In this document: one piece after another, positions 1,450 through 15,051 of the stretch | Layout of the letters: every line of letters starts with the position of its first letter | Numbering within the stretch: position 1 is the stretch's first letter | DNA from: a virus | Lineage: Duplodnaviria > Heunggongvirae > Uroviricota > Caudoviricetes | DNA: 29,192 bases | IMG/VR virus record: IMGVR_UViG_2700989521_000016 | Reading direction: 5' to 3' (one strand) | Notes under the pieces: generated by a model | Databases searched by the model: none | The model's input: only the letters and a program-made list of their open reading frames with translations | Told to the model about the DNA's origin: nothing | Program-made: the position numbers and the translations under genes

Positions 1450-2096
1450 GCTGCACGCTCCCGCCCCTGGTTGTCTGTTGGTGACAGCGGAGCATTGCTG
1501 AATGCATTTGTTAATCTGGCAATATCCAACGCGTATCCAGGGTGTAGTTGCACTGCCGGGTCTTCGCACTGATTACCCCAAACATCGAAGCCATGAGACG
1601 ACTGGCGGGCGAACAGTTCAATGCGAGAAACATCGCCTAACAATTGCACAAGTTTTTCACGAACGACATCTGGTTTTCTTGAATGCTCAAGCCGCGGTGC
1701 GGTAAATGACTGAACGATCCCTGCATTAATGCGCGGAGGTAGTTTTCCCTTTACTGCAAACAGGCAATCTTCACTATTGGCGCGAGTCATGTGACCCATA
1801 CCCATAACCAGTTTATCTGGTTGTCGACTACCACATTTTATCCACGTGAATCCCTTCATGGTCATCAGACGGAATCCCCAGGCTTCAACAACTTTTAGTG
1901 CTTCGAGTGGTTGTGTTGGCACCCACCACATGGCCAACAGACAGTTTTCATCGGCCAAATCCCACACAGGAAGGCGGCAGATATCCAGCACACTCATAAC
2001 CGGATATTTAAAACCGGCACCGCGATTACCATCTGCGGCTTTGTCCCGGTATACCCAGGGTGGATCTGCATAGATTAGTGTGTATTTCTTAGTCAT
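1446..2096 (-). CDS. MT-A70-family N6-adenine DNA methyltransferase (orphan, no adjacent restriction gene seen)
   Basis: 216 aa from ATG at 2094-2096 (MTKKYTLIYADPPWVY...); DPPW catalytic motif near N-terminus typical of MT-A70/phage Dam-like methyltransferases; the ORF track gives a GTG start at 2108, the ATG was preferred. Confidence 0.85.
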   Translation of the reverse strand: MTKKYTLIYADPPWVYRDKAADGNRGAGFKYPVMSVLDICRLPVWDLADENCLLAMWWVPTQPLEALKVVEAWGFRLMTMKGFTWIKCGSRQPDKLVMGMGHMTRANSEDCLFAVKGKLPPRINAGIVQSFTAPRLEHSRKPDVVREKLVQLLGDVSRIELFARQSSHGFDVWGNQCEDPAVQLHPGYALDIARLTNAFSNAPLSPTDNQGRERAA

Positions 2097-2388
2097 AAAC
2101 CACCCCACAACATCCTATGCCGCTATAGTCGCCACGGCGAAGGCCGTTACCTTTTGTGATACATTGGTCCCTGCGAACCGCGATCCTTGCACGCTCAACA
2201 TCACCAGAAGCAACATCCATACACTGAAGCCAAAGGTGAGCGGCAATGCGGAACTGTCCTTTTTTCTCTCTTTCAATTGCGCGTTTTTCGAACTCTATCG
2301 CCGCAGGAGTAACTGCGACAATCTTTGACGGACTGCGCATTGAAACCTTGTTCATGTGATATTTTTCAAGTCGGCTTAACTTTCTCAC
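2089..2388 (-). CDS. Hypothetical protein; start uncertain (GTG 2388, ATG 2355 or ATG 2340)
   Basis: ORF in the same leftward operon, stop overlaps the methyltransferase start by 8 bp; no recognisable family; weak RBS. Confidence 0.3.
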   Translation of the reverse strand: MRKLSRLEKYHMNKVSMRSPSKIVAVTPAAIEFEKRAIEREKKGQFRIAAHLWLQCMDVASGDVERARIAVRRDQCITKGNGLRRGDYSGIGCCGVVYD

Positions 2389-4853: not shown

Positions 4854-5006
4854 TCAGCCCTCCCATATCTCGTTATCGTTGGCCACATCGCGAGCTTCTT
4901 TGCTGACGAAAGCCCACTTAATGCCTTCCTGTAAGGTGCGGAACTTCCAGCTCATGAATCCGCATGCAGTAACACAGCACCAACCGTTGATAATTTTCCA
5001 CTGCAT
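4854..5006 (-). CDS. Small hypothetical protein (50 aa), first gene of the leftward early operon; Cys/Trp-rich with hydrophobic segment
   Basis: Not in ORF track (below length cutoff); ATG at 5004-5006 preceded by GAGGTG SD 8 nt upstream on minus strand; TGA stop at 4854-4856, 3 bp from next start. Confidence 0.4.
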   Translation of the reverse strand: MQWKIINGWCCVTACGFMSWKFRTLQEGIKWAFVSKEARDVANDNEIWEG

Positions 5007-5025
5007 AACTTGTCACCTCGGCTTG

Positions 5026-5102
5026 TTACCGTTGAGGTAATAATTATGCGTATTTGGTTTGATGTCAATAGATATGAGTTGAAAAAATTACCTGCAAGGT
5101 AA
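5026..5102. promoter_or_regulatory. PL-like leftward early promoter region with two perfect TTACC-N5-GGTAA operator palindromes (5026-5040, 5088-5102)
   Basis: Perfect palindromes TTACCGTTGAGGTAA and TTACCTGCAAGGTAA read directly; minus-strand TTGACA (5063-5068) and CATAAT/TAATTA-like -10 candidates lie between and adjacent to them; exact -35/-10 spacing not resolved. Confidence 0.6.
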
Positions 5103-5113
5103 TTAGATGGACA

Positions 5114-5137
5114 ATAAAAAAGCCGCCAAATGGCGGC
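5114..5137 (-). terminator. Rho-independent terminator downstream of the repressor gene
   Basis: Stem GCCGCC/GGCGGC (5122-5137) with 4-nt loop, followed on the minus strand by a 6-nt U tract (complement of AAAAAA 5116-5121). Confidence 0.65.
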
Positions 5138-5159
5138 TTACTTACTGAAAAATATGATT

Positions 5160-5744
5160 TTATTGTTTGTTTTTTTCGTTCTGGTTGATGACAAATTCAA
5201 TGTAACTTTCGATCTTTGCTTTCTCGGTTTCAGGTAACAATGCGTAGCGCGAGCGGTCATAGTTGATAGTTGCAGGGTCGTGCGGGTGAATCAGTAGTTC
5301 ATATCCGTGACGCCCGAATGCAGATGCAACATTCTCCAGAGTGGAAATGGAAACGCTGACCTCATTGTTTAACAGGCGGCTGATTGTCACCTGGGCGACG
5401 CCGGATGCGCGGTGAAGTTTTCCCTGAGTTGAAAGGTCGCGGCTTTCACTCATCCAGCGTTCCAGGTTGTGAGCCGCCAGCTGACCAATGTCGCTTGGTC
5501 CAACAGGCTGAAAACCCTCCTGAGAAAGCGAGCGATCGATATCAAGCCAGTTACGTGGTTTATTGGCGGCAGCTTCAATTTTTCGCGCAACCTGGTCGCC
5601 GATAACCTTCTTGCCAAGAGCCCAGCGGTTTACCAGATTTGCCTGAGTTCCAAGTTTTTCTGCCATCCGCGTCTGAACACCATTGAATTCACGGTCGATC
5701 AAGTCGTTGAGATTTTGCCTGCGGACGTCCTGGATACTTTTCAT
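5160..5744 (-). CDS. Prophage repressor candidate with two tandem XRE-type helix-turn-helix domains and no recognisable S24 peptidase domain
   Basis: 194 aa; two HTH-like segments (MAEKLGTQANLVNRWALGKK...; ASGVAQVTISRLLNNEVSVSISTLENVASAFG); divergent from Cro-like gene with operator palindromes between them. Confidence 0.75.
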   Translation of the reverse strand: MKSIQDVRRQNLNDLIDREFNGVQTRMAEKLGTQANLVNRWALGKKVIGDQVARKIEAAANKPRNWLDIDRSLSQEGFQPVGPSDIGQLAAHNLERWMSESRDLSTQGKLHRASGVAQVTISRLLNNEVSVSISTLENVASAFGRHGYELLIHPHDPATINYDRSRYALLPETEKAKIESYIEFVINQNEKNKQ

Positions 5745-5799
5745 TTTCTGGAAAATCGCCTCATATATGAATCAGTAGATGATTCAATTTAAAGCAATA

Positions 5800-5862
5800 T
5801 TACCCAACAGGTAAATGCACCCCATAGGTAACTATCCTTGATTTTTGTTACCTTATGGGTGA
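5800..5862. promoter_or_regulatory. Tripartite operator region between repressor and Cro-like genes (sites 5800-5814 perfect, 5817-5831 imperfect, 5848-5862 9/10)
   Basis: TTACCCAACAGGTAA, GCACCCCATAGGTAA, TTACCTTATGGGTGA read directly; TTGATT -35-like hexamer at 5837-5842 upstream of the Cro-like gene. Confidence 0.65.
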
Positions 5863-5898
5863 ATATTTATTATCTGAAATAAATATCAGGCAATAGCT

Positions 5899-6129
5899 AT
5901 GAGCGATAACGGACATTTCGATTTCAAAAAGCACTGGCTTGCACTTACTCCGGATGAGCGTGAAGCCTTCGCACAGGAAGCCGGAACGACGAGTCACTAT
6001 ATCCAGACTCACTTAACAGGTAAGCGCAAAATGACAGGTAAAGTATTGATGAATGGGCTTTTTAAAGCCTGTAAAACAAGACAATGGCTGCGCTCAAAAG
6101 CAGAACTGGCATACTTCTTCTACTCATGA
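5899..6129 (+). CDS. Cro-like / YdaS-like small DNA-binding regulator
   Basis: 76 aa; position divergent from repressor; pattern resembles Cro/CI-type HTH (EAFAQEAGTTSHYIQTHLTGKRKM); weak SD. Confidence 0.65.
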   Translation: MSDNGHFDFKKHWLALTPDEREAFAQEAGTTSHYIQTHLTGKRKMTGKVLMNGLFKACKTRQWLRSKAELAYFFYS

Positions 6130-6150
6130 TATCCAGCCACAAACCTCTGT

Positions 6151-6173
6151 AGACCGCCATCCGGCGGTCTTTT
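6151..6173 (+). terminator. Rho-independent terminator after the Cro-like gene (tR1-like position)
   Basis: Stem GACCGCC/GGCGGTC (6151-6168, loop ATC) followed by TTTT (6169-6172). Confidence 0.65.
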
Positions 6174-6279
6174 CATATCTATTCGCACCTTAAAGGTAAT
6201 AAAAAACCAAATCTGGTTGATCTTTTTTTTGTGTCAGCACAAAATAACCGTAATCCCAATACTAATAACAGGGCTTACC

Positions 6280-6480
6280 ATGGAAATCATTACACGTATT
6301 GATGCCGCAAAGCGCGGACTTAAACGCTACTACACCGGAAAACCATGTAAGCACGGACATGACAGTGAACGCTGGGTTTACAACGGACACTGTGTTGAGT
6401 GCACCATGGAATCAAACCGTCGCATCAGGGCAGAGATTAAGCAGATCATGATTAATTCCTCCCCACAACATTCAAGCTGA
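6280..6480 (+). CDS. Small zinc-ribbon-like protein (66 aa) in the cII-equivalent position
   Basis: ATG at 6280; C-x-H-G-H ... C-x2-C motif (KPCKHGHDSERWVYNGHCVEC); the ORF track's longer version begins with TTG at 6217 and was not preferred; weak RBS. Confidence 0.45.
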   Translation: MEIITRIDAAKRGLKRYYTGKPCKHGHDSERWVYNGHCVECTMESNRRIRAEIKQIMINSSPQHSS

Positions 6481-6495
6481 TAGCGGAGATTAATC

Positions 6496-7311
6496 ATGAG
6501 CAGACATGCAACAGATTGGGCCTGGGAGACAGATCCAGGTAGCTCATCATTAAAGCTCATACTGCTCTCGATGGCTGACAGAGCCGATGAATATAACCTC
6601 TGCTACCCCAGCATAGAACGCCTCGTTAAAGACACTTGCCTGAATAAAAAAACCGTGCAGGCCGGGCTTATATCGCTCATGAAAATGGGGCTTATTTCAG
6701 ATACCGGAGAGAGAAAGGGAGCGACGAAAAGAGTGCGGGTTTTCTCTCTTAATATAACCAAAAACGGGAACATTAAAGGCAACCGGGAAGGGGGGAATGA
6801 ACCCGAAAACGGTAATGTTCCCGAAAACGGTAATATAACCAAAAACGGGATGTTGAATGATCCCAAAAACGGGATGTTGAATGATCCCAAAAACGGGATC
6901 CAGAACCAGTCATATAACCAGTCATTTAACCAAGAGAGGGAGAGCAGGACAAAAAACGGGAATTCTGTGCCTCATGACCCCGGCGCAAACAACGCCGTGA
7001 TGAATAACTTTGTTCCTCCTGGTGGGCCAGGGCAATTAGGCAAATTTGTCATGCATGAACAATGGCAGCCATCAGATGACTTTCTTCGGAAAAGCTCATT
7101 GCAGGGGATCTACCTGGACAGTCTGCCAACGGCACAGGAACTTGCAGAGTTCAGAATTTACTGGATGGCTGAGGGTAAGGCATACCATCAGGCACAGTGG
7201 GAGCAGAAGCTGGCAAGGCGGCTGCAGATTAGCAGACAGAAGCAATCAACATTACCTGATAACAACGTTCCGCACTGGAACAGCCCTGAAGCATGGGAGG
7301 ATTTCTTGTGA
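6496..7311 (+). CDS. Replication initiator protein (lambda O-like organisation: N-terminal HTH domain, iteron-encoded linker, C-terminal DnaT-like domain)
   Basis: 271 aa; sits directly upstream of and overlaps the P-like gene; internal iteron array encodes an NG-rich linker; GGAG SD upstream. Confidence 0.75.
   Translation: MSRHATDWAWETDPGSSSLKLILLSMADRADEYNLCYPSIERLVKDTCLNKKTVQAGLISLMKMGLISDTGERKGATKRVRVFSLNITKNGNIKGNREGGNEPENGNVPENGNITKNGMLNDPKNGMLNDPKNGIQNQSYNQSFNQERESRTKNGNSVPHDPGANNAVMNNFVPPGGPGQLGKFVMHEQWQPSDDFLRKSSLQGIYLDSLPTAQELAEFRIYWMAEGKAYHQAQWEQKLARRLQISRQKQSTLPDNNVPHWNSPEAWEDFL
6757..6900. repeat. Iteron array (candidate origin of replication) embedded in the replication initiator gene
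   Basis: Direct repeats read from sequence: CCCGAAAACGGTAAT at 6802-6816 and 6820-6834 (18-bp period); CCAAAAACGGGATGTTGAATGAT at 6839-6862 and 6863-6886 plus a partial third copy; related CCAAAAACGGGAA at 6757-6769. Confidence 0.7.
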
Positions 7312-8093
7312 ACAACGTTTTTACCGCAATACAAAACCGTGACGGAGAGGCCCTTTCTCGCATGTCAGGTTATGAGCATCAGTACACCAACAATGACAAC
7401 GTAGTGAACATGTCAGCAGAGAGGCTTGTTGATGCCCTTTTCAAACAGTTGAAACAACTGTTTCCGGCGGCAGTGGTAACCAACCTGAAGACGCCAGAGC
7501 AGGAAGTTGCTGCAAAACAGCAGTGGATTGCTGCGTTTGCCGAAGGGGGGATCCGAACCCGTAAACAGGTTTCTGCTGGTATGCGCCACGCCCGCGCCAG
7601 TGATTCTCCGTTCTGGCCGTCGCCAGGGCAATTCATCAAGTGGTGCAAAGACAGCAAGATGGTTCTTGGCGTCACCATTGACGATGTGATGACGGAGTTT
7701 CACCGGTACAGCAAGGAAAAAAGTTTATATCCTGGTGGTCCCGAAAGATTCCCGTGGCGGCATCCGGTTATGTACTGGGTCGTATGTGATACCCGCCGTG
7801 CAATGTATCAGCGCCAGCTTAGCGAGATTGAGGTTGAGAAACACGCGCGCAGGCTGCTCGATGATTGGGCGAAAAAGGTGGCTTCCGGACAGCAGATACC
7901 CGATCCGGTGATCAGCATACAGGCAAAGCCAGAACCCATGAGTACGCCTCCGGAAACAGGGAGAGACGTTTACCATCCACCAGGGCGAAGTTTCGGGTGC
8001 ATGCCTAACGCCGCCACCCTGGGGGGAATAACACCGGCGCAGTGGCTGATGGAGGAATACAGGCGGGGAAAGGCGGCAGGATTTATCAAGTAA
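7308..8093 (+). CDS. Replication protein P-like (DnaB helicase loader family)
   Basis: Motif SAGMRHARASDSPFWPSPGQFIKWCKD parallels lambda P (NAGMRVARRQNRPFLPSPGQFVAWCRE) from memory; GTG at 7308 overlaps the O-like stop (GTGA) with GGGAGG SD 7 nt upstream; alternative ATG start at 7293. Confidence 0.85.
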   Translation: MNNVFTAIQNRDGEALSRMSGYEHQYTNNDNVVNMSAERLVDALFKQLKQLFPAAVVTNLKTPEQEVAAKQQWIAAFAEGGIRTRKQVSAGMRHARASDSPFWPSPGQFIKWCKDSKMVLGVTIDDVMTEFHRYSKEKSLYPGGPERFPWRHPVMYWVVCDTRRAMYQRQLSEIEVEKHARRLLDDWAKKVASGQQIPDPVISIQAKPEPMSTPPETGRDVYHPPGRSFGCMPNAATLGGITPAQWLMEEYRRGKAAGFIK

Positions 8094-8098
8094 TACCA

Positions 8099-8118
8099 GC
8101 GCGATAGCGCATTTTTTT
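8099..8118 (+). terminator. Probable rho-independent terminator after the P-like gene
   Basis: Short GC stem (GCGC GATA GCGC, 8099-8110) followed by ATTTTTTT (8111-8118); stem is only 4 bp so strength uncertain. Confidence 0.45.
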
Positions 8119-8130
8119 ACGCCTCAATAA

Positions 8131-8207
8131 TTACCTTCTGGGTAATGAGATATTCTAAAATCTATTGATTTCGTGTCTTATGTGGTTTTTAATTACCTCA
8201 GGGGTAA
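8131..8207. promoter_or_regulatory. Promoter region of the nin-like operon with two perfect TTACC-N5-GGTAA palindromes (8131-8145, 8193-8207)
   Basis: TTACCTTCTGGGTAA and TTACCTCAGGGGTAA read directly; TTGATT (8165-8170) then 17 bp then TTTAAT (8188-8193) looks like a sigma70 promoter; second palindrome overlaps the -10/RBS of the gene starting at 8211. Confidence 0.6.
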
Positions 8208-8210
8208 ATC

Positions 8211-8555
8211 ATGAGAAAGCAGATACAGGCTCTTGGTCGACTCAAAACAGGCCAGATGAACAAAACAGAATCTGCGTATTGCCAGCACCTTGAGCAGCGT
8301 AAACGTGCAGGGGAAATCGCCTGGTATCGGTTCGAGGGTATCAAGCTGCGGCTGGCTGACAACACGTTCTATACGCCAGATTTCGCTGTGATGCTCGCCA
8401 CTGGTGAGATGGAACTGCATGAAGTGAAAGGTTTCTGGACCGACGACGCTAGGGTGAAAACCAAAGTCGCCGCAGATCAGTATCCGTTCCGAATCATCGG
8501 GGTAACGGTTAAGCCAAAGAAAGCAGGTGGCGGCTGGAATATCGAAGAGTTCTGA
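8211..8555 (+). CDS. Hypothetical protein, possible PD-(D/E)XK-fold nuclease-like
   Basis: 114 aa; pattern TPDFAV...ELHEVKG suggestive of a D...E-x-K motif; inference only. Confidence 0.6.
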   Translation: MRKQIQALGRLKTGQMNKTESAYCQHLEQRKRAGEIAWYRFEGIKLRLADNTFYTPDFAVMLATGEMELHEVKGFWTDDARVKTKVAADQYPFRIIGVTVKPKKAGGGWNIEEF

Positions 8556-8616
8556 ATCGACGATCTTTTTAGTTATCAATGTAATCAATAAGTTATGTGG
8601 ATAAGCGAGGGTAAAG

Positions 8617-9120
8617 ATGGAAAGTAATATCAAAGGGTTAGTTTCCGCCGGGCATGAGATGGCTTCGGAACTGAAAGCAGAATGTGGGGCCGTTGATATG
8701 CGTAGTGTGGCAAAGCTGATCAGCAATTTGGCAACGCAATTGGAAGTGCAACTGGTGCGTGCTAATGCGCTGGCCGAAGACCACCAGAGAGCGATTGAGT
8801 CAATTAAGCAGGCTGATGCAGCTGTTAAGTTGGCACACGAGAAGTTTTCGGCGCTGGCAGCGGAGAATGCAAAGCTGAAGAAGTTCTGCAAAGACGCTGC
8901 ATTCGATGCCGATTACGAAGCAGAGCTAGGTATGGAGAGAGGTGGATTCAGTGATGCACTTAACGAAATAAAAACCCCAGCCACCGACGCCTTCCTGGCT
9001 GAAGTGCGGGCTCAGGGTGTGGAGATGCTCTACGCAAGCAGAGCGGCTCAGTGGGCTGATGAATTGTTAGCTGAGCTTAATGAATTCGCCACTCAGCTTC
9101 GCGAAGGAGGTGCAGCATGA
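8617..9120 (+). CDS. Hypothetical protein (167 aa), Ala/Glu-rich, probably coiled-coil
   Basis: ORF with GAGGGT SD; no family recognised. Confidence 0.6.
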   Translation: MESNIKGLVSAGHEMASELKAECGAVDMRSVAKLISNLATQLEVQLVRANALAEDHQRAIESIKQADAAVKLAHEKFSALAAENAKLKKFCKDAAFDADYEAELGMERGGFSDALNEIKTPATDAFLAEVRAQGVEMLYASRAAQWADELLAELNEFATQLREGGAA

Positions 9121-9350
9121 GCAATCAGATTAAGCCTGCCAGAAGAATTGATGCAGATGGTAATGCCAGAGACGTCGACAACGCTTACGAGGAGGGAATC
9201 TACGCCGCCGTAATAGGCCTCGAGGTAACTGACAATCCGTATTCAACAGATGATCCACTCAACCGTAAGCTTTGGCTAAAGGCTTTCGCTGGGGTCAAGA
9301 GTGGAAAGATCAGAAGCGCCGCCCAGTTACGCAAAGGAGGCAACCAGTGA
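9117..9350 (+). CDS. Hypothetical protein (77 aa)
   Basis: ATG overlaps previous stop (ATGA); GGAGG SD upstream. Confidence 0.55.
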   Translation: MSNQIKPARRIDADGNARDVDNAYEEGIYAAVIGLEVTDNPYSTDDPLNRKLWLKAFAGVKSGKIRSAAQLRKGGNQ

Positions 9351-10120
9351 GCAAGATTGATTATCAGGCACTGCGTGAAGCGGCAGAAAAAGCAACGTGT
9401 GGTGAGTGGTCGCTCGAATATGGAGAGGGCCGATTTGATGGTGATGATGCGCTAATTAATCGCGAGGCTGCTGGATATATTCCCATTTGCAGAATTGAAG
9501 GAGCGCATCCTGAAAGCGGTTTCGATGAAGATTTCCAAATGGAACAGCAGGCCAATGCTGAATTCATCGCTGCAGCCAATCCGGCTACCGTGCTGGCACT
9601 GCTGGATGAACGGGAAAGAAACCAGCAATACATCAAACGCCGCGACCAGGAGAACGAGGATATTGCGCTAACGGTAGGGAAGCTGAGAGTTGAGCTGGAA
9701 GCCGCAGAGAATAACCTCATTGATAGTGAATGCCATGTTGCTGAACTGGAAGAAGCGCTACGCAATAAGCAGGCGTTACTTGAAGCATCAGAGAAGCGCA
9801 ACGCAAAATTACAAAGCGAGAATGCATACATCCGCAACCGGTACAAAGAACTGGACCTATTAATCGGGAAAAACATTCTGGTCATGCAGGCTGCCATTAT
9901 CGAATGGCAATCGACTGGCGACGCTAAAAGCGGACTAGCATGGATTTATAACACACTGTTTGGCCCAGGCGAATTGCCGGACGAATCTGAGAAAAATGCT
10001 CAGGCCTACTTTAATCGCAAATATGCACCGATTGACGAAAAGCTTATGGCGCTTCACAAGTGGTTTTGGGAACAAAGTGAAGCCGAGCGCGCCGCTGGCA
10101 TTCGCATCAAAGGAGAGTGA
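9347..10120 (+). CDS. Ead/Ea22-like protein (tentative), coiled-coil central region
   Basis: GTG at 9347 overlaps the previous stop (GTGA) with AAGGAGG SD 6 nt upstream; N-terminal IDYQALREAAEKATCGEW motif recalls the ead/Ea22-like family from memory; the ORF track's upstream extension from 9272 overlaps the preceding gene and was not used. Confidence 0.6.
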   Translation: MSKIDYQALREAAEKATCGEWSLEYGEGRFDGDDALINREAAGYIPICRIEGAHPESGFDEDFQMEQQANAEFIAAANPATVLALLDERERNQQYIKRRDQENEDIALTVGKLRVELEAAENNLIDSECHVAELEEALRNKQALLEASEKRNAKLQSENAYIRNRYKELDLLIGKNILVMQAAIIEWQSTGDAKSGLAWIYNTLFGPGELPDESEKNAQAYFNRKYAPIDEKLMALHKWFWEQSEAERAAGIRIKGE

Positions 10121-10121
10121 T

Positions 10122-10331
10122 ATGGCTATCGCTGCAAGTTACACCATGCATCTCTATTGTGATTGCCTCCAGTGTACAGATGGCAAATATAAGTCGCCAG
10201 ACTTCGGTGAGTATATAGGTACGTCATGGGCTGGCTGTGCAAAAGAGGCGCGCAAGGATGGCTGGCGAATAAGCAAAGACAAAACGCGTGCTTTTGCGCC
10301 CGGGCATAAAGTTTTGAGGATTAACAAATGA
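10122..10331 (+). CDS. Small Cys-containing hypothetical protein (69 aa)
   Basis: ATG at 10122 with AGGAGA SD; C-x-C-x2-C cluster (HLYCDCLQCTDG); the track's longer ORF from 9960 overlaps the upstream gene. Confidence 0.5.
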   Translation: MAIAASYTMHLYCDCLQCTDGKYKSPDFGEYIGTSWAGCAKEARKDGWRISKDKTRAFAPGHKVLRINK

Positions 10332-11017
10332 CCACTATAACCAAAGAGCGACTGATGACAATCAAGGAGTGGCGCGAAACATACGGACCTGGTAGCAACG
10401 TTGTGCTGCCAGCAGAAGAAGCGGAAGAACTGGCACGAATTGCACTGGCATCACTGGGAGCAGAACCAGTTGCTTATATTTTCAAACATCCGGCCGGGAA
10501 ATTATTCTGGGCTTTAACGGATGAAAGCAATAAAGAGCAAGCGGACGTTATTCCTGTTTATGCTGCCGCGCCTGCGTCGGTTGTGCCGGATAATGCATCA
10601 GAGCCTCTTGCTTATGCTTACAAAGAGCTTACGCCTGAGATTATGCGCAACCATTTAGCTGTATTCGAGCGATATGGAATAGCCCCAAACGATAGCTCTA
10701 CCACAATTCAGGCACTGCGAATCGCGCTGGATGGCATAGAGCGGAGCGACGCCATGCTTCATGGTGCCGAACCTGTAAGCCAAACTTACAAGTTGAACCA
10801 GCTATCGGGCAACTCTCCGGTAACTCCGGATGATTGGATAAGCTGTAGTGAGCAAATGCCGGACGACGCGCAGTGGTGCGTAGTGAACACAGAATACGGG
10901 TATTACGTGCAATGCTGGTCTGAAGGTCAAGGGTGGCTTGGTGATGATATCAGCATCCCTGAATGCGATGTAATCAATTGGATGCCGCTACCAGAACCGC
11001 CGCAGGAGGTGAAGTAA
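10328..11017 (+). CDS. DUF551-domain protein (tentative)
   Basis: 229 aa; C-terminal pattern DDWISCSEQMP...W...NWMPLPEPP resembles DUF551 from memory; ATG overlaps previous stop (ATGA). Confidence 0.6.
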   Translation: MTTITKERLMTIKEWRETYGPGSNVVLPAEEAEELARIALASLGAEPVAYIFKHPAGKLFWALTDESNKEQADVIPVYAAAPASVVPDNASEPLAYAYKELTPEIMRNHLAVFERYGIAPNDSSTTIQALRIALDGIERSDAMLHGAEPVSQTYKLNQLSGNSPVTPDDWISCSEQMPDDAQWCVVNTEYGYYVQCWSEGQGWLGDDISIPECDVINWMPLPEPPQEVK

Positions 11018-11385
11018 TGGACTATTCACAGTTAAGTGATTTTGAAATTAACAGAATGGTAGGAGACATAATTTTTAAAGGCCTTTGGGCATGTAAACCG
11101 GAAACATCAGGGAATAACACCAACAAATGGTATTACGGAAATGCTGATACAACTTTTGAGCCATTAAACCCTTTACCTGACTACTGCAATGATCCGAGCG
11201 CCTCATGGCCTGTAATCGCAAAACATCAGATCAGCATATGTGCATACGAAAGAAATAATCCTGGAATGAAGAATGAATATTGGTGGGAGGCGGATAGATT
11301 TTGTGAATTTATTACCATAGACAACAACCCACTCCGCGCCGCCATGATTGTATTTCTCATGATGCAGGAAAATCAGAATGGCTAA
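11017..11385 (+). CDS. Hypothetical protein (122 aa), possibly NinX/DUF2591-like
   Basis: ATG at 11017 overlaps previous stop (TAATG); GGAGG SD; N-terminus MDYSQLSDFEINRMVG; family assignment from memory only. Confidence 0.55.
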   Translation: MDYSQLSDFEINRMVGDIIFKGLWACKPETSGNNTNKWYYGNADTTFEPLNPLPDYCNDPSASWPVIAKHQISICAYERNNPGMKNEYWWEADRFCEFITIDNNPLRAAMIVFLMMQENQNG

Positions 11386-11716
11386 ATCATCAGCAGAGCG
11401 CAAAGCCGCTCAGAGAGCCAGACAAGCTGCATCTGGTGTGCGTAAGCTGGAAATTGTGCTTGATGCTCAGGAAATTGAAATGCTGGAGCGTAACTGTGCC
11501 ACGCGTCGCCCCGGGCGTGCGCCTTACGAATTTGGTGAGTATATAGCGTTACTGATCCGCCAGGATGATGCACGCGTGCGCGGGCGTATAAAATCGATCA
11601 GCAGAAAACGTTGCGGTAAGTGCGGCGAGAGAGTTCCAGTTAATTCATGCCCGTGTAATGGTGACTCGCAATGCTGGGTGACTAAAGGCTGGCATGAAAC
11701 GAAATTAATAGTGTGA
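11378..11716 (+). CDS. Hypothetical protein (112 aa) with C-terminal Cys cluster, last gene before terminator and packaging genes
   Basis: Basic N-terminus, RCGKCGERVPVNSCPCNGDSQCW zinc-binding-like cluster; could be a regulator, but no family recognised. Confidence 0.55.
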   Translation: MAKSSAERKAAQRARQAASGVRKLEIVLDAQEIEMLERNCATRRPGRAPYEFGEYIALLIRQDDARVRGRIKSISRKRCGKCGERVPVNSCPCNGDSQCWVTKGWHETKLIV

Positions 11717-11724
11717 CATGTCAC
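11713..11724. repeat. Perfect 12-bp palindrome GTGACATGTCAC, copy 1
   Basis: Read directly; overlaps the stop codon of the gene ending at 11716; identical copy at 13978-13989. Confidence 0.8.
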
Positions 11725-11765
11725 GAGTAGATTATGCATGATGAATTTGATGGGTTTTGAATACT

Positions 11766-11791
11766 GCCGCCAACTATGGCGGCTTTATTTT
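11766..11791 (+). terminator. Rho-independent terminator separating early/middle genes from the packaging genes
   Basis: Stem GCCGCCA/TGGCGGC (11766-11783, loop ACTA) followed by TTTATTTT (11784-11791). Confidence 0.75.
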
Positions 11792-11802
11792 GCATGATAC
11801 TA

Positions 11803-11835
11803 TTACCACAACGGTAACTATTACCACGGTGGTTA
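11803..11835. promoter_or_regulatory. Two TTACC-N5-GGTAA-type palindromes directly upstream of the small terminase start (11803-11817 perfect, 11821-11835 9/10)
   Basis: TTACCACAACGGTAA and TTACCACGGTGGTTA read directly; second site abuts the terS ATG at 11835. Confidence 0.6.
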
Positions 11836-12431
11836 TGATGCCTGCTGAACCTAAAACCTATAAACGCAAATCAACGCAATTTAAGCCACTAACAGCAATG
11901 CAGGAGGCTTATTGCCAGTCATACATCAAAACGCCTGAAAACCAGACTCAGGCAGCGATTAACGCAGGATTCTCCCCAAATACAGCGGCAGTTAAAGCCA
12001 GTGTCATGATGCGCGATGAACGCATTCAAAAACGGATTGCCGAGTTGATGGAGGAGCGCAACAAACGAATGCGCATCAGTGCTGATTACGTTCTCATGCG
12101 CCTGGTGGAGATCGACCAGATGGACGTGATCGACATCCTCAACGACGATGGGAGCCTTAAACCAATCTGTGAGTGGCCGAAAATTTGGCGCACTACGCTT
12201 AGTGGCTTTGATCTGTCATCGACCATCATGAACATGAACGAGGATTCGATAGAGACAATCCTCAAAAAAATTAAATGGCCTGACAAGGTGAAGAACCTTG
12301 AGCTGATTGGTAAGCATGTTGATGTCAACGCGTTCAAAGAACGTCTGGATGTTAATGTGAATGTGACAATTGCTGATCGCATAGCAGCAGCCAGGAAGCG
12401 ACTCAAAGAACGTCAGGATGGTAATCACTGA
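11835..12431 (+). CDS. terS: Terminase small subunit
   Basis: ATG at 11835 (MMPAEPKTYKRKSTQFKPLTAMQEAYCQ...), downstream of terminator; position immediately upstream of the large terminase; the track's 11757 start lies inside the terminator and was not used. Confidence 0.7.
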   Translation: MMPAEPKTYKRKSTQFKPLTAMQEAYCQSYIKTPENQTQAAINAGFSPNTAAVKASVMMRDERIQKRIAELMEERNKRMRISADYVLMRLVEIDQMDVIDILNDDGSLKPICEWPKIWRTTLSGFDLSSTIMNMNEDSIETILKKIKWPDKVKNLELIGKHVDVNAFKERLDVNVNVTIADRIAAARKRLKERQDGNH

Positions 12432-12460
12432 CAGATACAGCGTTATCTCCTGAAGAGCAG

Positions 12461-13903
12461 TTGATCGAGGATATTGCAGGGTTCACTCACGATCCGCTTG
12501 GCTATGCCCTCTATGCGTTCCCGTGGGGGGAAGAGGGGACTGAATTAGCACATGCCACCGGTCCACGTCAGTGGCAGGCTGATGCGTTCCGAGAGATACG
12601 TGATCACCTGCAGAATCCAGAGACGCGCTATCAGCCGCTTATGCTGGCACGTGCTTCGGGTCACGGTATTGGTAAATCCGCATTCATCTCAATGCTGATC
12701 AACTGGGGCATGTCCACTTGCGAGGATTGTAAGGTCGTGGTGACCGCCAACACCGACAACCAGCTACGAACGAAGACTTGGCCGGAAATTATCAAGTGGT
12801 CGAACCTTGCTATCACGAAAGACTGGTTTACCTGTACCGCTACCGCGATGTACAGCAATGACCCTGGGCACGACAAGCGGTGGCGAGCTGACGCAATCCC
12901 CTGGTCTGAGCACAACACTGAGGCATTCGCCGGACTACACAACGAGCGCAAACGCATCATCGTGGTATTCGATGAAGCGTCGAACATTGCGGATCTGGTG
13001 TGGGAAGTTGCCGAGGGTGCGCTAACGGACGAAGACACTGAGATTATCTGGGTGGCGTTCGGAAACCCGACGCGTAACACCGGGCGTTTCCGTGAATGTT
13101 TCCGCAAGTACAAACACCGCTGGAAGTGTGCGCAGATTGACAGCCGGACGGTGGAAGGCACTAACAAACAGCAGTTGCAGAAATGGGTTGATGACTACGG
13201 GGAAGACAGCGACTTCGTTAAAATCCGTGTGCGCGGCATATTCCCGGATGCATCTGAATTGCAGTTTATCCCTACTGGCCTTACTGACGAGGCAATGAAA
13301 CGGGTGGTAACCGCTGCGCAGGTTGCACATGCTCCGGTGATAATCGGCGTTGACCCGGCATACTCCGGCGTTGATGACGCTGTGATATACCTGCGGCAGG
13401 GGCTGCACAGTAAGGTGCTGTGGACTGGCAACAAGACCACTGACGATCTGATTATGGCGAAGCGTATCGCTGACTTTGAAGACCAGTACCAGGCTGACGC
13501 AGTGTTCATCGACTTCGGTTACGGAACTGGTCTGAAGTCAATCGGTGACGGCTGGGGTCGTACATGGCAACTTGTTCCGTTCGGTGGCGCGTCTACTGAC
13601 CCGCAGATGCTCAACAAGCGTGGGGAGATGTTCATCTCATGCAAGACATGGCTGAGGCTGGGTGGCATGCTTGATGACCAGGAAACAGCGGACGACCTGT
13701 CGGCGGCTGAGTACAAAGTTCGAGTGGACGGTAAAATCGTTATCGAACCGAAGGAAGATATCAAGGAGCGGCTTGGGCGTTCGCCGGGTAAAGGCGATGC
13801 GCTACTGCTGACGTTTGCGTTCCCTGTGTCGAAGCGTCTGCGAATTCCCGGGCAGCAGAACCAGCAAGGCAAGGCCATCACAGATTACGATCCCTATGCT
13901 TAA
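12461..13903 (+). CDS. terL: Terminase large subunit (ATPase plus nuclease domains)
   Basis: 480 aa; Walker A-like ASGHGIGKS; VVFDEASN Walker B-like; TTG start at 12461 as in ORF track (in-frame stop at 12422-12424 limits upstream extension). Confidence 0.85.
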   Translation: MIEDIAGFTHDPLGYALYAFPWGEEGTELAHATGPRQWQADAFREIRDHLQNPETRYQPLMLARASGHGIGKSAFISMLINWGMSTCEDCKVVVTANTDNQLRTKTWPEIIKWSNLAITKDWFTCTATAMYSNDPGHDKRWRADAIPWSEHNTEAFAGLHNERKRIIVVFDEASNIADLVWEVAEGALTDEDTEIIWVAFGNPTRNTGRFRECFRKYKHRWKCAQIDSRTVEGTNKQQLQKWVDDYGEDSDFVKIRVRGIFPDASELQFIPTGLTDEAMKRVVTAAQVAHAPVIIGVDPAYSGVDDAVIYLRQGLHSKVLWTGNKTTDDLIMAKRIADFEDQYQADAVFIDFGYGTGLKSIGDGWGRTWQLVPFGGASTDPQMLNKRGEMFISCKTWLRLGGMLDDQETADDLSAAEYKVRVDGKIVIEPKEDIKERLGRSPGKGDALLLTFAFPVSKRLRIPGQQNQQGKAITDYDPYA

Positions 13904-13977: not shown

Positions 13978-13989
13978 GTGACATGTCAC
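13978..13989. repeat. Perfect 12-bp palindrome GTGACATGTCAC, copy 2
   Basis: Read directly; identical to 11713-11724, shared flanks extend the match to tGTGACATGTCACg. Confidence 0.8.
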
Positions 13990-13993
13990 GGTG

Positions 13994-14350
13994 TTATTGC
14001 TCGCTTAGCTTCTGCTTCAGCAAGTAACCTTCGAGCATCCAGATTTTGTTTACAGCATTCTGCCGGGCAATCTTCCGACCAATTTCTGCATCAAAGTTTT
14101 CCTGGCTTGCACAGGCACTCTCTCCGGTGACGGTGAAGCCATTCTTCAGCACCAGTACGCAGAAAGTCAGGAGGTCTGTAGAGTTATGCGCTGTCCATGA
14201 ATCGCCAACGCCCATATTGGCGGCACGAATGCCGTCATAAGCAGTAAAGAAATGCTCTTCAAGAATGATGCTTTCGATATATTGAGGCGTAACTCGCGGT
14301 GCCGTTTTGCCTTTCTCAACGATTTCTTTTTCGATTTGCTGGTCGTTCAT
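13994..14350 (-). CDS. Moron-like hypothetical protein (118 aa) on the opposite strand to the late genes; possibly Gp49/Sf6 gp66-like family (tentative)
   Basis: ATG at 14348-14350 with AAGGTGAG SD; flanked by terminator hairpins on both sides; motif NGFTVTGESACASQENFDAEIGRKIA recalls a conserved phage family from memory. Confidence 0.7.
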   Translation of the reverse strand: MNDQQIEKEIVEKGKTAPRVTPQYIESIILEEHFFTAYDGIRAANMGVGDSWTAHNSTDLLTFCVLVLKNGFTVTGESACASQENFDAEIGRKIARQNAVNKIWMLEGYLLKQKLSEQ

Positions 14351-14361
14351 AATCTCACCTT

Positions 14362-14385
14362 AAAAAAATGCCCGGCGAACCGGGC
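14362..14385 (-). terminator. Strong rho-independent terminator between the tRNA and the moron gene
   Basis: Minus strand reads GCCCGG-UUCG-CCGGGC followed by A + UUUUUUU; U tract ends 12 nt before the moron start codon. Confidence 0.75.
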
Positions 14386-14547
14386 GAACTGGAAGCAATG
14401 AGTTCTTCCTTCCGTGGATGTACGGGTTTACAGCATGAAGTCATCGCAATGGCGTCCTGCTGTAAAAAGTGCGGTGATAGTCCTTCAAGGGAAACCATCA
14501 CCGCCAAGCACTGGAACTTCTGGCATCACGGTCCTTAGGCGTGATTC

Positions 14548-14624
14548 TGGCGTGGCATGCAGGATTCGAACCTGCGACCAACCGCTTAGAAGGCGGTTGC
14601 TCTGTCCGACTGAGCTAATGCCAC
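14548..14624 (-). tRNA. tRNA-Arg (anticodon UCU), phage-borne
   Basis: Manually folded 77-nt cloverleaf on minus strand: acceptor GTGGCAT/ATGCCAC, D-arm GCTC/GAGC, anticodon stem ACCGC/GCGGT with loop CTTCTAA (anticodon TCT), T-arm GCAGG-TTCGAAT-CCTGC identical to E. coli argU as recalled, discriminator G and encoded CCA. Confidence 0.8.
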
Positions 14625-14946
14625 AACGCTGAGAGCACTTAGCCTGTTAAGGCACCACACTTTGTCGCGGCTCCATAAATGCTCTCATCGTTGTACCCTC
14701 GTCTCTTCCGAGGCGTCACACCGAATCGCCGGGATGGTGAATCCCCGTGCGCGGAATAAAACCGCTCGACTTGCACATTCCGGCTACCTGGTTCGTTTGC
14801 CCGAGCAAGGGAGGGTGCCCCTTAAACGTATCCAGGCCGCTATCGGCGCATGTGCCATACGCCGTACTGCTCAAAATAAAAGCTCACTCCACCTGTTCAA
14901 TTTAACGACAAGCCAGTCAGGTTAGTAACCGGAATGAACTTTTTGG

Positions 14947-14961
14947 TTACCTGAAAGGTAA
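14947..14961. promoter_or_regulatory. Perfect TTACC-N5-GGTAA palindrome at the head of the virion-gene operon
   Basis: TTACCTGAAAGGTAA read directly, right half-site runs into GGTAATAAT (possible -10); a second GGTAATAAT at 15017-15025. Confidence 0.6.
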
Positions 14962-15051
14962 TAATTCGTGCGTTAAATGTCAACCGACTACGATAAATAA
15001 ATCATATGTGGTTAAATTGGTAATAATTTAATTGCGTACGGAGTCATTGAT

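Follow-up and report, generated by a model that had tools for sequence, protein, structure and literature searches.

In phages lambda and P22, the nin region lies between the replication genes and Q or gene 23, respectively, and its transcripts start at PR and are carried past tR2-type terminators through antitermination by N or gp24. Here we describe the region that follows the replication genes in a 29,192-nucleotide stretch of DNA from a virus of the class Caudoviricetes (IMG/VR record IMGVR_UViG_2700989521_000016), the whole of which is referred to below as the window. The element in question is the segment at 8131 to 8207, where two palindromes enclose a promoter-like sequence directly ahead of eight small genes (8211 to 11716). 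The closest described systems are those of phages epsilon15 and SPC32H.

The Rep repressor of SPC32H is a tetramer on DNA and is released by the antirepressor Ant (PMC9638917); it has a p53-like tetramerization domain, which is typical of DNA-looping regulators (PMC9986798). In the GenBank record of epsilon15 (AY150271.2), a feature labeled "protein_bind: repressor" at 35906 to 35922 is the homolog of the first of the two palindromes studied here, and other repressor sites are marked ahead of the terminase gene (12 to 27), the portal operon (2931 to 2947) and the tailspike gene, with a group of three at OL. As the homologous site is thus labeled in an existing record, the regulatory reading given below is correct but lacks novelty. 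No annotation was found in the epsilon15 record for the second operator, for the constant spacing of 62 bp or for an architecture like that of PL, and the ZX5 paper is without operator mapping.

Results

Predicted Rep operators enclose a promoter-like element after the replication genes

The motif TTACC-N5-GGTAA, with one mismatch or none, was found 9 times in the window compared with an expectation of 0.34, and none of 100 shuffled sequences reached 9. Operator A (TTACC-TTCTG-GGTAA, 8131 to 8145) has arms that are perfect to 6+6 (ATTACC/GGTAAT), and operator B (TTACC-TCAGG-GGTAA, 8193 to 8207) is perfect over 5+5, with the sixth pair mismatched. The two operators are 62 bp apart and have the direct repeat TAATTACC in common. 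Operator B overlaps the predicted point of transcription start as well as the Shine-Dalgarno sequence of gene 1, the first of the eight genes, whose ATG is at 8211.

Between the operators lies a -35-like hexamer, TTGATT (8165 to 8170, plus strand), inside a conserved block CTATTGA, and, after a 17-bp spacer, a -10-like hexamer, TTTAAT (8188 to 8193, plus strand). TTGATT matches the sigma70 consensus at 4/6 positions and TTTAAT at 5/6, the latter with T in place of the consensus A at position 2. It is for want of this A that the element was not listed by the promoter scan, and the promoter-like matches that the scan did find in the region were not in excess (8, compared with 10.0 in shuffled sequences).

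The stop codon of the P-like gene (8091 to 8093) is followed immediately by a terminator-like hairpin, GCGC-GATA-GCGC, then A and T7 (8099 to 8118, plus strand). With its flanks, this hairpin folds at -8.7 kcal/mol (z = -2.35 relative to shuffled sequences). The element has four GC pairs followed by T7, whereas the terminator scan requires at least five pairs, and its 4-bp stem explains why the scan missed it. The terminator after the P gene was labeled a putative terminator by the annotators of phiV10.

An initial annotation, made from the sequence alone, had placed at this locus a terminator, a sigma70-like promoter bracketed by two perfect operator palindromes, and the start of a separately regulated operon with its own repressor-controlled promoter. 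The palindromes at 8131 and 8193 were confirmed, with perfect 5+5 arms, and the claim that a repressor-controlled transcription unit of its own starts here was supported by the matching of the palindromes to the operators of the phage repressor and by conservation of the module across the genus, as described below. The terminator was found to be present and conserved but weak. The promoter claim needs more caution: the element is conserved and in the register of PL, but without A at position 2 of the -10 hexamer and with no listing by the scan, the label "sigma70-like" is weaker than first stated.

The same operators mark other transcription units of the window

The repressor gene (5160 to 5744, minus strand) encodes a full-length match to SPC32H Rep (PDB 5D50, E value of 4e-42), and the N-terminal DNA-binding region is well conserved between the two. 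Just downstream of this gene is PL (5026 to 5102, minus strand), a strong leftward promoter, TTGACA-17-AATTAT, that scored 10/12 in the promoter scan. It is enclosed by operators at 5026 to 5040 and 5088 to 5102, which are likewise 62 bp apart, so that its layout reads operator, 62 bp, operator, with CTATTGACA-17-AATTAT-TACC. When PL and 8131 to 8207 were set in register without gaps, 50/82 positions were identical, including 23/47 in the segment between the operators (shuffle p of 0.002). On the assumption of a start about 7 nt past the -10 hexamer, the operators are centered at approximately -62 and +1 in both, operator A and operator B taking these places in the segment under study.

Further copies were found at OR, between rep and the cro-like gene (5800 to 5862, with 5800 to 5814 perfect and 5848 to 5862 carrying one mismatch), directly 5' of the start codon of the small terminase gene (11803 to 11835, with 11803 to 11817 perfect and 11821 to 11835 carrying one mismatch), and, as a single site, upstream of the portal operon (14947 to 14961). 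Since operators precede both the small terminase gene and the portal operon, and are so annotated in epsilon15, the late operons also appear to be gated directly by the prophage repressor. The total in epsilon15 is 12 to 15 sites, compared with the 9 of the window. Rep sites stand at or near each point where transcription would restart after a terminator. From this distribution, we consider TTACC-N5-GGTAA to be probably the operator of the phage's own Rep repressor, which would bind at 8131 and 8193.

A less regular element was observed past the strong terminator that follows the cro-like gene (6151 to 6170, -15 kcal/mol, z = -5.3). In the region 6151 to 6230, a degenerate operator, GCACC-TTAAA-GGTAA (6176 to 6190), is followed by a promoter-like TTGATC-17-CAAAAT, and in phiV10 and Tyrion the equivalent of 6176 to 6190 is an operator with one mismatch. 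The presence of an operator and a promoter-like element after the cro terminator suggests that the replication genes are another separate repressor-gated unit.

The module is conserved whatever genes adjoin it

The window is from a temperate E. coli phage of the epsilon15/phiV10 (Uetakevirus) type. Its genes run in the order integrase, early-left recombination operon, repressor and cro-like pair, O/P-type replication genes, the eight-gene cassette, terminase, portal and podovirus structural genes. Nucleotide comparison showed mosaic pieces in common, at 94 to 97% identity, with E. coli O157 typing phages 9 and 10, TL-2011b, phiV10, ZX5 and related phages; phiV10 and epsilon15 belong to the genus Uetakevirus according to the GenBank classification. 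Many complete E. coli genomes have similar prophages, the best of which covers at most 86% of the region 4900 to 12500.

In epsilon15, SPC32H, Tyrion, phiV10, TL-2011b and Klebsiella phage ST512-KPC3phi13.3, the last replication gene is succeeded by two operators with a spacing of exactly 62 bp, and in all six the second operator covers the Shine-Dalgarno sequence and ATG of the next gene. The module is also conserved in approximately 60 metagenomic relatives. Its order is constant: terminator-like motif, operator, CTATTGA with the -35 hexamer, 17 bp, TTWAAT, and an operator over the Shine-Dalgarno sequence and ATG. It stays the same irrespective of its neighbors, for a DUF1064 gene comes next in the window, phiV10 and SPC32H and a RuvC gene in epsilon15 and Tyrion, and the upstream gene varies as well. 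In an alignment of six phages, the operator arms, the TTGA of the -35 hexamer, most of the -10 region and the terminator-like GCGC-N4-GCGC-A-T7 were invariant, and the operator centers were variable. Across all fetched loci, which comprised 62 distinct modules, the terminator-like motif was present in 58 and TTGATT in 51; the -10 variants were TTTAAT in 51, TTAAAT in 5 and ATAAAT in 2.

The operon has a fixed frame and a rapidly exchanged interior

Eight tightly coupled genes had been proposed at 8211 to 11716, and these proved to be real open reading frames (ORFs), all on the plus strand, with junctions that overlap or are 1 nt apart save for a 61-nt AT-rich gap after gene 1. They had also been described as eight unknown genes, which held only in part, as most could be placed in families. 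Gene 1 (8211 to 8555) encodes a DUF1064 protein, a predicted Holliday junction resolvase of the PD-(D/E)XK nuclease type: it matched Pfam DUF1064 (3.4e-07) and phrog_190 "Holliday junction resolvase" (6e-43), gave weak matches to T7 endonuclease I, and has a PD...EVK motif visible in the translation. DUF1064 was placed among the PD-(D/E)XK nucleases by Kosinski et al. (PMC1189080), and this role is supported by epsilon15 and Tyrion, where gene 1 gives way to a gene for a RuvC-type resolvase.

Gene 2 (8617 to 9120) matched phrog_492 and other PHROGs of unknown function and is Eae-like according to the annotation of phiV10 and epsilon15. Gene 3 (9117 to 9350) encodes a small protein with subthreshold matches to NCBIfam Rmf_CrpP_fam (6e-05) and Pfam RMF (0.0018). 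Gene 4 (9347 to 10120), whose GTG start overlaps the stop codon of gene 3, encodes an Ead/Ea22-like protein (Pfam Ead_Ea22, 3e-35). A Cys-containing protein of 69 amino acids is encoded by gene 5 (10122 to 10331; phrog_926, an unnamed PHROG of unknown function, 1.5e-36), a protein with a C-terminal DUF551 domain by gene 6 (10328 to 11017; Pfam DUF551, 3.5e-10), and a member of the NinX/DUF2591 family by gene 7 (11017 to 11385; Pfam Phage_P22_NinX, 4.7e-11). Gene 8, a predicted ribbon-helix-helix (RHH) regulator gene, is described in the next section.

Gene turnover was compared in 54 close relatives that have a gene 8 at least 96% identical and the operator pair upstream. The P-like gene and gene 1 were each found in 53/54 relatives, at median identities of 98% and 99%, respectively, and gene 8 (54/54) and the small terminase gene (53/54) both had a median of 98%. 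Between these flanks, gene 2 was present in 48/54 at a median identity of 58%, gene 3 in none of the 54, genes 4 and 5 in 6 each, gene 6 in 27, with similarity at the level of the DUF551 domain only, and gene 7 in 9. The distance from operator A to gene 8 ranged from 2.1 to 5.0 kb among the relatives. The operon is therefore a fixed frame, with the predicted resolvase first and the predicted RHH DNA-binding protein last, around a fast-exchanged interior of the Ea/Nin type. As judged from these comparisons, the interior is a hot spot of gene turnover, from which no function follows.

A search with PADLOC gave a single match, that of the "DpdH" model PDLC02890 (127 positions) to residues 145 to 244 of the gene 4 product, with an E value of 6e-36. 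It was not accepted as a defense gene, as the match lies in the C-terminal domain (residues 145 to 257, 9779 to 10117) that ead/Ea22-like prophage proteins have in common, and further Dpd components were not found. What the model detects may be a gene of prophages and not a component of Dpd, and such matches need care.

The last gene of the operon is paired with a palindrome

Gene 8 (11378 to 11716, plus strand) encodes a predicted RHH protein, conserved, with a Cys-rich, zinc-ribbon-like part, of the family of epsilon15 gp49 and N15 gp46. It matched phrog_536 "transcriptional regulator" (6e-54) and had no sequence match in Pfam, NCBIfam or the PDB. An AlphaFold2 model built from a diverse alignment was predicted to have the RHH fold by fold search, with the RHH domain of MatP among the matches; it replaced a first model built from 28 near-identical sequences, for which the pLDDT was 62 and the fold search was meaningless. 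The family numbers 181 representatives (clusters at 50% identity) among 1.84 billion proteins and ranges over podo-, sipho- and myoviruses of enterobacteria, Vibrio and Aeromonas.

A perfect 12-bp palindrome, GTGACATGTCAC (11713 to 11724), overlaps the stop codon of gene 8 and is a candidate site for the gene 8 protein; a second copy lies at 13978 to 13989, just past a hairpin downstream of the large terminase gene. In epsilon15, SPC32H and Tyrion, GTGACATGTCAC occurs at the same two places and also at the end of the structural operon, beside a terminator. The expected count of this 12-mer is 0.03 to 0.05 per genome.

Distant homologs of gene 8 were found in otherwise unrelated phages, each with sites of the general form GTGAC-N2-GTCAC. 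ZF40 and N15 have three perfect sites each, one of them 3 nt past the stop codon of the homolog in ZF40 and one overlapping the stop codon of gene 46 in N15. Vibrio phage K233 also has three, two of which precede a start codon, in one case that of the terminase gene, by exactly 31 nt. A P2-like phage of Yersinia has one perfect site and one with a single mismatch, and P22, which is without a gene 8 homolog and served as a control, has none. Sites were located at 2142, 19517 and 39612 in locus L003, at 28550, 33237 and 39269 in L090, at 5125, 7622 and 14944 in L091, and at 21342, 33227 and 35942 in L092.

In 62 loci taken from different bacterial species, 89 GTGAC-N2-GTCAC sites were counted compared with 1.1 expected; 58 of the 62 loci had at least one, and in 41 a site lay within -20 to +60 nt of the end of the gene 8 homolog. 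A set of 49 N15-like loci contained 105 sites (0.8 expected), and every one of the 49 had a site at the stop codon. When the reference genomes and both locus sets were pooled, the counts of GTGAC-Nx-GTCAC for spacers of 0 to 8 bp were 3, 1, 214, 3, 1, 1, 4, 1 and 1, and those of the everted control ranged from 0 to 6 at any one spacing. We infer from this pairing that the gene 8 protein binds GTGAC-N2-GTCAC.

What lies downstream of the site varies and may be a terminator, a LexA-box promoter or the next gene; because of this variation, the gene 8 homolog and its palindrome can be regarded as traveling as a unit. Some relatives (L095 at 9273 to 9740, L096 at approximately 10336 to 10440) have a small gene with a LexA-box promoter of the TACTGT-N8-ACAGTA type inserted after the gene 8 palindrome and before the terminator that stands ahead of the terminase genes, and a short remnant of that insertion, GCATGAT, was observed in the window at 11725 to 11765. 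Several of the more distant homologs are also followed by LexA boxes. The terminator of the window at this junction, between gene 8 and the small terminase gene (11766 to 11783, plus strand), is a strong intrinsic one that was found by the terminator scan (-16.2 kcal/mol, z = -5.0) and is kept in relatives. No fixed geometry of GTGAC-N2-GTCAC relative to terminators or promoters was found, and for that reason no specific mechanism can be derived for the palindrome. Binding could serve autoregulation or the control of read-through at operon junctions, or it could be unrelated to transcription.

Several better-known proteins and sites were considered and set aside. Gene 8 has no similarity to the Q proteins of lambda, 21 or 82, and its predicted fold is RHH; ZF40 and N15 encode Q-like as well as gene-8-like proteins, so gene 8 is no simple substitute for Q in these two phages. 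A relationship to TraR/DksA was given a PDB profile E value of 0.44 and an hhalign probability of 21%, with no Pfam match even at an E value of 10 and with the fourth Cys of the CxxC-N17-CxxC motif unaligned. As a MatP homolog, gene 8 received an hhalign probability of 0.2%, and its site has a spacer of 2 bp compared with 3. The palindrome does not fit a CRP/FNR site either, having 4 nt between GA and TC compared with the 6 needed in the consensus.

In a literature search, no paper was found that contains the 12-mer GTGACATGTCAC or describes its pairing with gene 8, and it is unannotated in the epsilon15 and N15 records. Within the literature searched, this suggests that the candidate target of gene 8 has not been described before.

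Other features of the window

Two tandem copies of a 20-nt unit, TGGGATCATTCAACATCCCG (minus-strand reading), were picked up incidentally by the terminator scan at 6846 to 6889, 24 bp from start to start. They sit within the O-like replication initiator gene (6496 to 7311) and may be origin iterons.

The interval from the large terminase gene to the portal gene contains a leftward gene of the N4 gp49/Sf6 gene 66 family (13994 to 14350, minus strand), followed by approximately 700 bp with small ORFs only (14350 to 15030). The content of this interval differs among relatives and includes a tRNA-Arg gene in SPC32H and the Klebsiella phage. The region 13994 to 15030 would appear to be a second variable slot.

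Among the products of the early-left operon is a transcriptional activator of the PerC family (2089 to 2388, minus strand; Pfam, 6e-07), encoded beside an AlpA-like protein and an MT-A70 methylase. The PerC-family protein is another candidate regulator in a phage without a recognizable N or Q.

Discussion

Proposed control of the operon

We propose that 8099 to 8210 is the control region of a third early transcription unit, a nin-like operon placed after the replication genes and gated by Rep through its own promoter, and we put the probability of this reading, taken as a whole and including the binding of Rep at both operators, at roughly 0.8. By this scheme, the weak terminator at 8099 to 8118 would stop most PR transcription, and the moderate sigma70-type promoter TTGATT-17-TTTAAT would restart it. 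In a lysogen, one Rep tetramer would occupy both operators, which are six helical turns apart, and, probably through a bridge between them, would shut off the promoter in the same way as PL. Inactivation of Rep, for which relatives have Ant, an antirepressor under LexA control, would release PL, PR and this promoter together, and no N-like antiterminator would be required. Early-right transcription would be split by the terminators at 6151 to 6170, 8099 to 8118 and 11766 to 11783. No family match to N, gp24 or Q was obtained among the 28 window ORFs scanned against Pfam, and a scan of 7800 to 12500 against Rfam at an E value of 1 gave no match. Because no N or Q was among the scanned ORFs and Rep sites occur at the restart points, it appears that the operon is reached by repressor-gated promoters in series and not by antitermination.

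Several observations weigh against this proposal. Position 2 of the -10 hexamer is not the A that is highly conserved there, and the element went unreported by the promoter scan. The predicted start would give a leader of approximately 10 nt that begins within the Shine-Dalgarno sequence. With a terminator stem of 4 bp, read-through from PR may be substantial, in which case the contribution of the promoter would be small. The antirepressor gene is located outside the window. Finally, all of the relatives examined have the same half-sites, which leaves no heteroimmune relative in which covariation of repressor and operator could be followed.

Some of these features would also fit a roadblock, in which Rep at the palindromes halts PR transcripts in the manner of a stoperator and the operon, having no promoter of its own, is expressed by read-through once Rep is gone. 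The poor -10 hexamer missed by the scan, the weak upstream terminator, the position of operator B just before the gene, and the occurrence of Rep operators past other terminators without an obvious promoter, as at 11803 to 11835, all favor such a model. We nevertheless consider it unlikely, as the CTATTGA block and the 17-bp spacing are conserved in exact register with PL, which the scan itself found at 10/12, and a roadblock has no need of two sites 62 bp apart that enclose promoter-like hexamers. PR transcripts are, moreover, unlikely to arrive in quantity because both the strong terminator at 6151 to 6170 and the conserved weak one at 8099 to 8118 intervene. That the palindromes act instead as RNA hairpins, the second occluding the gene 1 ribosome-binding site on transcripts that read through, or forming a processing site, is highly improbable. 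Operator B does overlap the Shine-Dalgarno sequence, and the RNA of 8120 to 8215 folds somewhat better than shuffled sequences (z = -2.6), but each hairpin would have only 5 bp, the motif is also found at many sites that bind no ribosome, including both sides of the repressor gene, and the pattern of conserved arms with free loops and DNA symmetry is that of a site for a dimeric protein; Rfam, too, was without a match. Scarcely more credible is a leftward promoter, AAGACA-16-TAGAAT (8179 to 8152), that would send antisense RNA into the replication genes: it was listed by the scan as a minus-strand match at 9/12, but its hexamers are not conserved in epsilon15, SPC32H and Tyrion, where the plus-strand -35 is invariant, and promoter-like matches in this region do not exceed those of shuffled sequences.

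A different question is what the operon is for. The initial annotation regarded it as the expected hot spot for anti-defense, defense or host takeover functions, and a cassette chiefly of this kind could use its own promoter for immediate expression upon induction or infection. The hot spot itself was borne out by the fast turnover of the interior among near-identical phages (genes 3 to 7 in 0 to 27 of the 54; gene 2 at a median of 58%, compared with 98 to 99% for the flanks). The accessory genes of relatives at this place encode an HNH endonuclease, a PAPS reductase, an ASCH-domain protein and EaF, and most of the families have no assigned function, which would leave room for such roles. No evidence of defense or anti-defense was found with PADLOC, however; there was no credible match to a defense model, "DpdH" being the generic Ead/Ea22 C-terminal domain, and the two genes conserved throughout the genus, those for the resolvase and the DNA-binding regulator, are of the housekeeping type. 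Variability by itself is no proof of function. We therefore regard a cassette devoted mainly to conflict with the host or its defenses as possible, if doubtful.

Our preferred reading, that of a repressor-gated promoter, leaves room for a further role of gene 8. Its product may be an RHH and zinc DNA-binding protein that recognizes GTGAC-N2-GTCAC as its cognate site and links the early transcription released from Rep to the late operons, a link that could take the form of terminator read-through or of insulation between operons. Uetakeviruses are without detectable homologs of N and Q, and the palindrome stands at the stop codon of gene 8 and, beside terminators, at operon junctions. We offer this as speculation, and think it rather improbable. 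If it were true, the promoter at 8131 to 8207 would gate the lytic cascade rather than an accessory cassette.

Significance

The module is ordinary for epsilon15/phiV10-like prophages of E. coli, with the exception of the last gene of the cassette and its candidate site. The value of the analysis is mainly annotational: prophages of this type, which are common in E. coli, Salmonella and Klebsiella, would gate their postreplication operon directly by the prophage repressor via a PL-like two-operator promoter and not by antitermination. The slot for accessory genes is delimited between fixed resolvase and regulator genes, which makes it a sensible place to screen for genes of phage-host interaction. 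The pairing of gene 8 and palindrome may matter more, as it offers, for a family known in databases only as "transcriptional regulator", a protein and a site whose pairing can be tested, and this link is the part of the analysis most worth an experiment.

Comparison with known systems

The locus is most like the sites of epsilon15 and the Rep-Ant system of SPC32H (PDB 5D50 and 5D4Z), with which it shares the half-sites TTACC-N5-GGTAA, a homologous repressor and an equivalent genomic position; epsilon15 also has sites at PL and ahead of both the terminase gene and the portal operon. Of the pair described here, however, the epsilon15 record marks one site, the first, and it does not mark a promoter. 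The genes around the module differ as well, as the window has a lambda-P-like loader upstream and DUF1064 first downstream, whereas epsilon15 has RuvC downstream.

The nin regions of lambda and P22 are likewise found after O/P-type replication genes and are mosaics of small, translationally coupled genes that include a junction-specific nuclease (Rap/NinG or RusA, to which the gene 1 product is analogous) and NinX. In the window, a junction nuclease and a NinX homolog lie between the P-like and terminase genes. In contrast to those regions, the operon has its own predicted operator-flanked promoter, with no match to N, gp24 or Q among the scanned ORFs and no Rfam element. A further difference from P22 is that Eae and Ead/Ea22 genes are in the early-left arm of that phage and within the cassette in the window.

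The arrangement at the end of the operon resembles that of lambda Q, PR' and tR' in that a regulator gene is followed by a presumed DNA site, a promoter-like GTGACA-18-CATGAT and a strong terminator before the late genes. It differs in that gene 8 has neither sequence nor fold similarity to Q and that other copies of the palindrome are not beside promoters. The matS site of E. coli is GTGACRNYGTCAC (PMC6907758), the half-sites of which are identical to those of GTGAC-N2-GTCAC. The spacer of the gene 8 site is 1 bp shorter, and in DNA bearing gene 8 the N2 form was counted 214 times compared with 3 for N3; in contrast to MatP, gene 8 is without a four-helix bundle or coiled coil and has a Cys-rich C terminus. 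The hosts of phages with the gene 8 family were observed to resemble the clade that contains MatP.

The distribution of Rep sites is reminiscent of the C1 repressor of P1 and of the gp71 stoperators of mycobacteriophages L5 and L1, where one repressor has sites before many transcription units, late genes included. The operators of mycobacteriophage L1 are described as multiple and asymmetric (PMC1934351). The sites of the window are instead symmetric palindromes suited to a tetramer of the XRE type with a double helix-turn-helix, and at PL and at 8131 to 8207 they are pairs that enclose a promoter or promoter-like element rather than oriented blocks to elongation.

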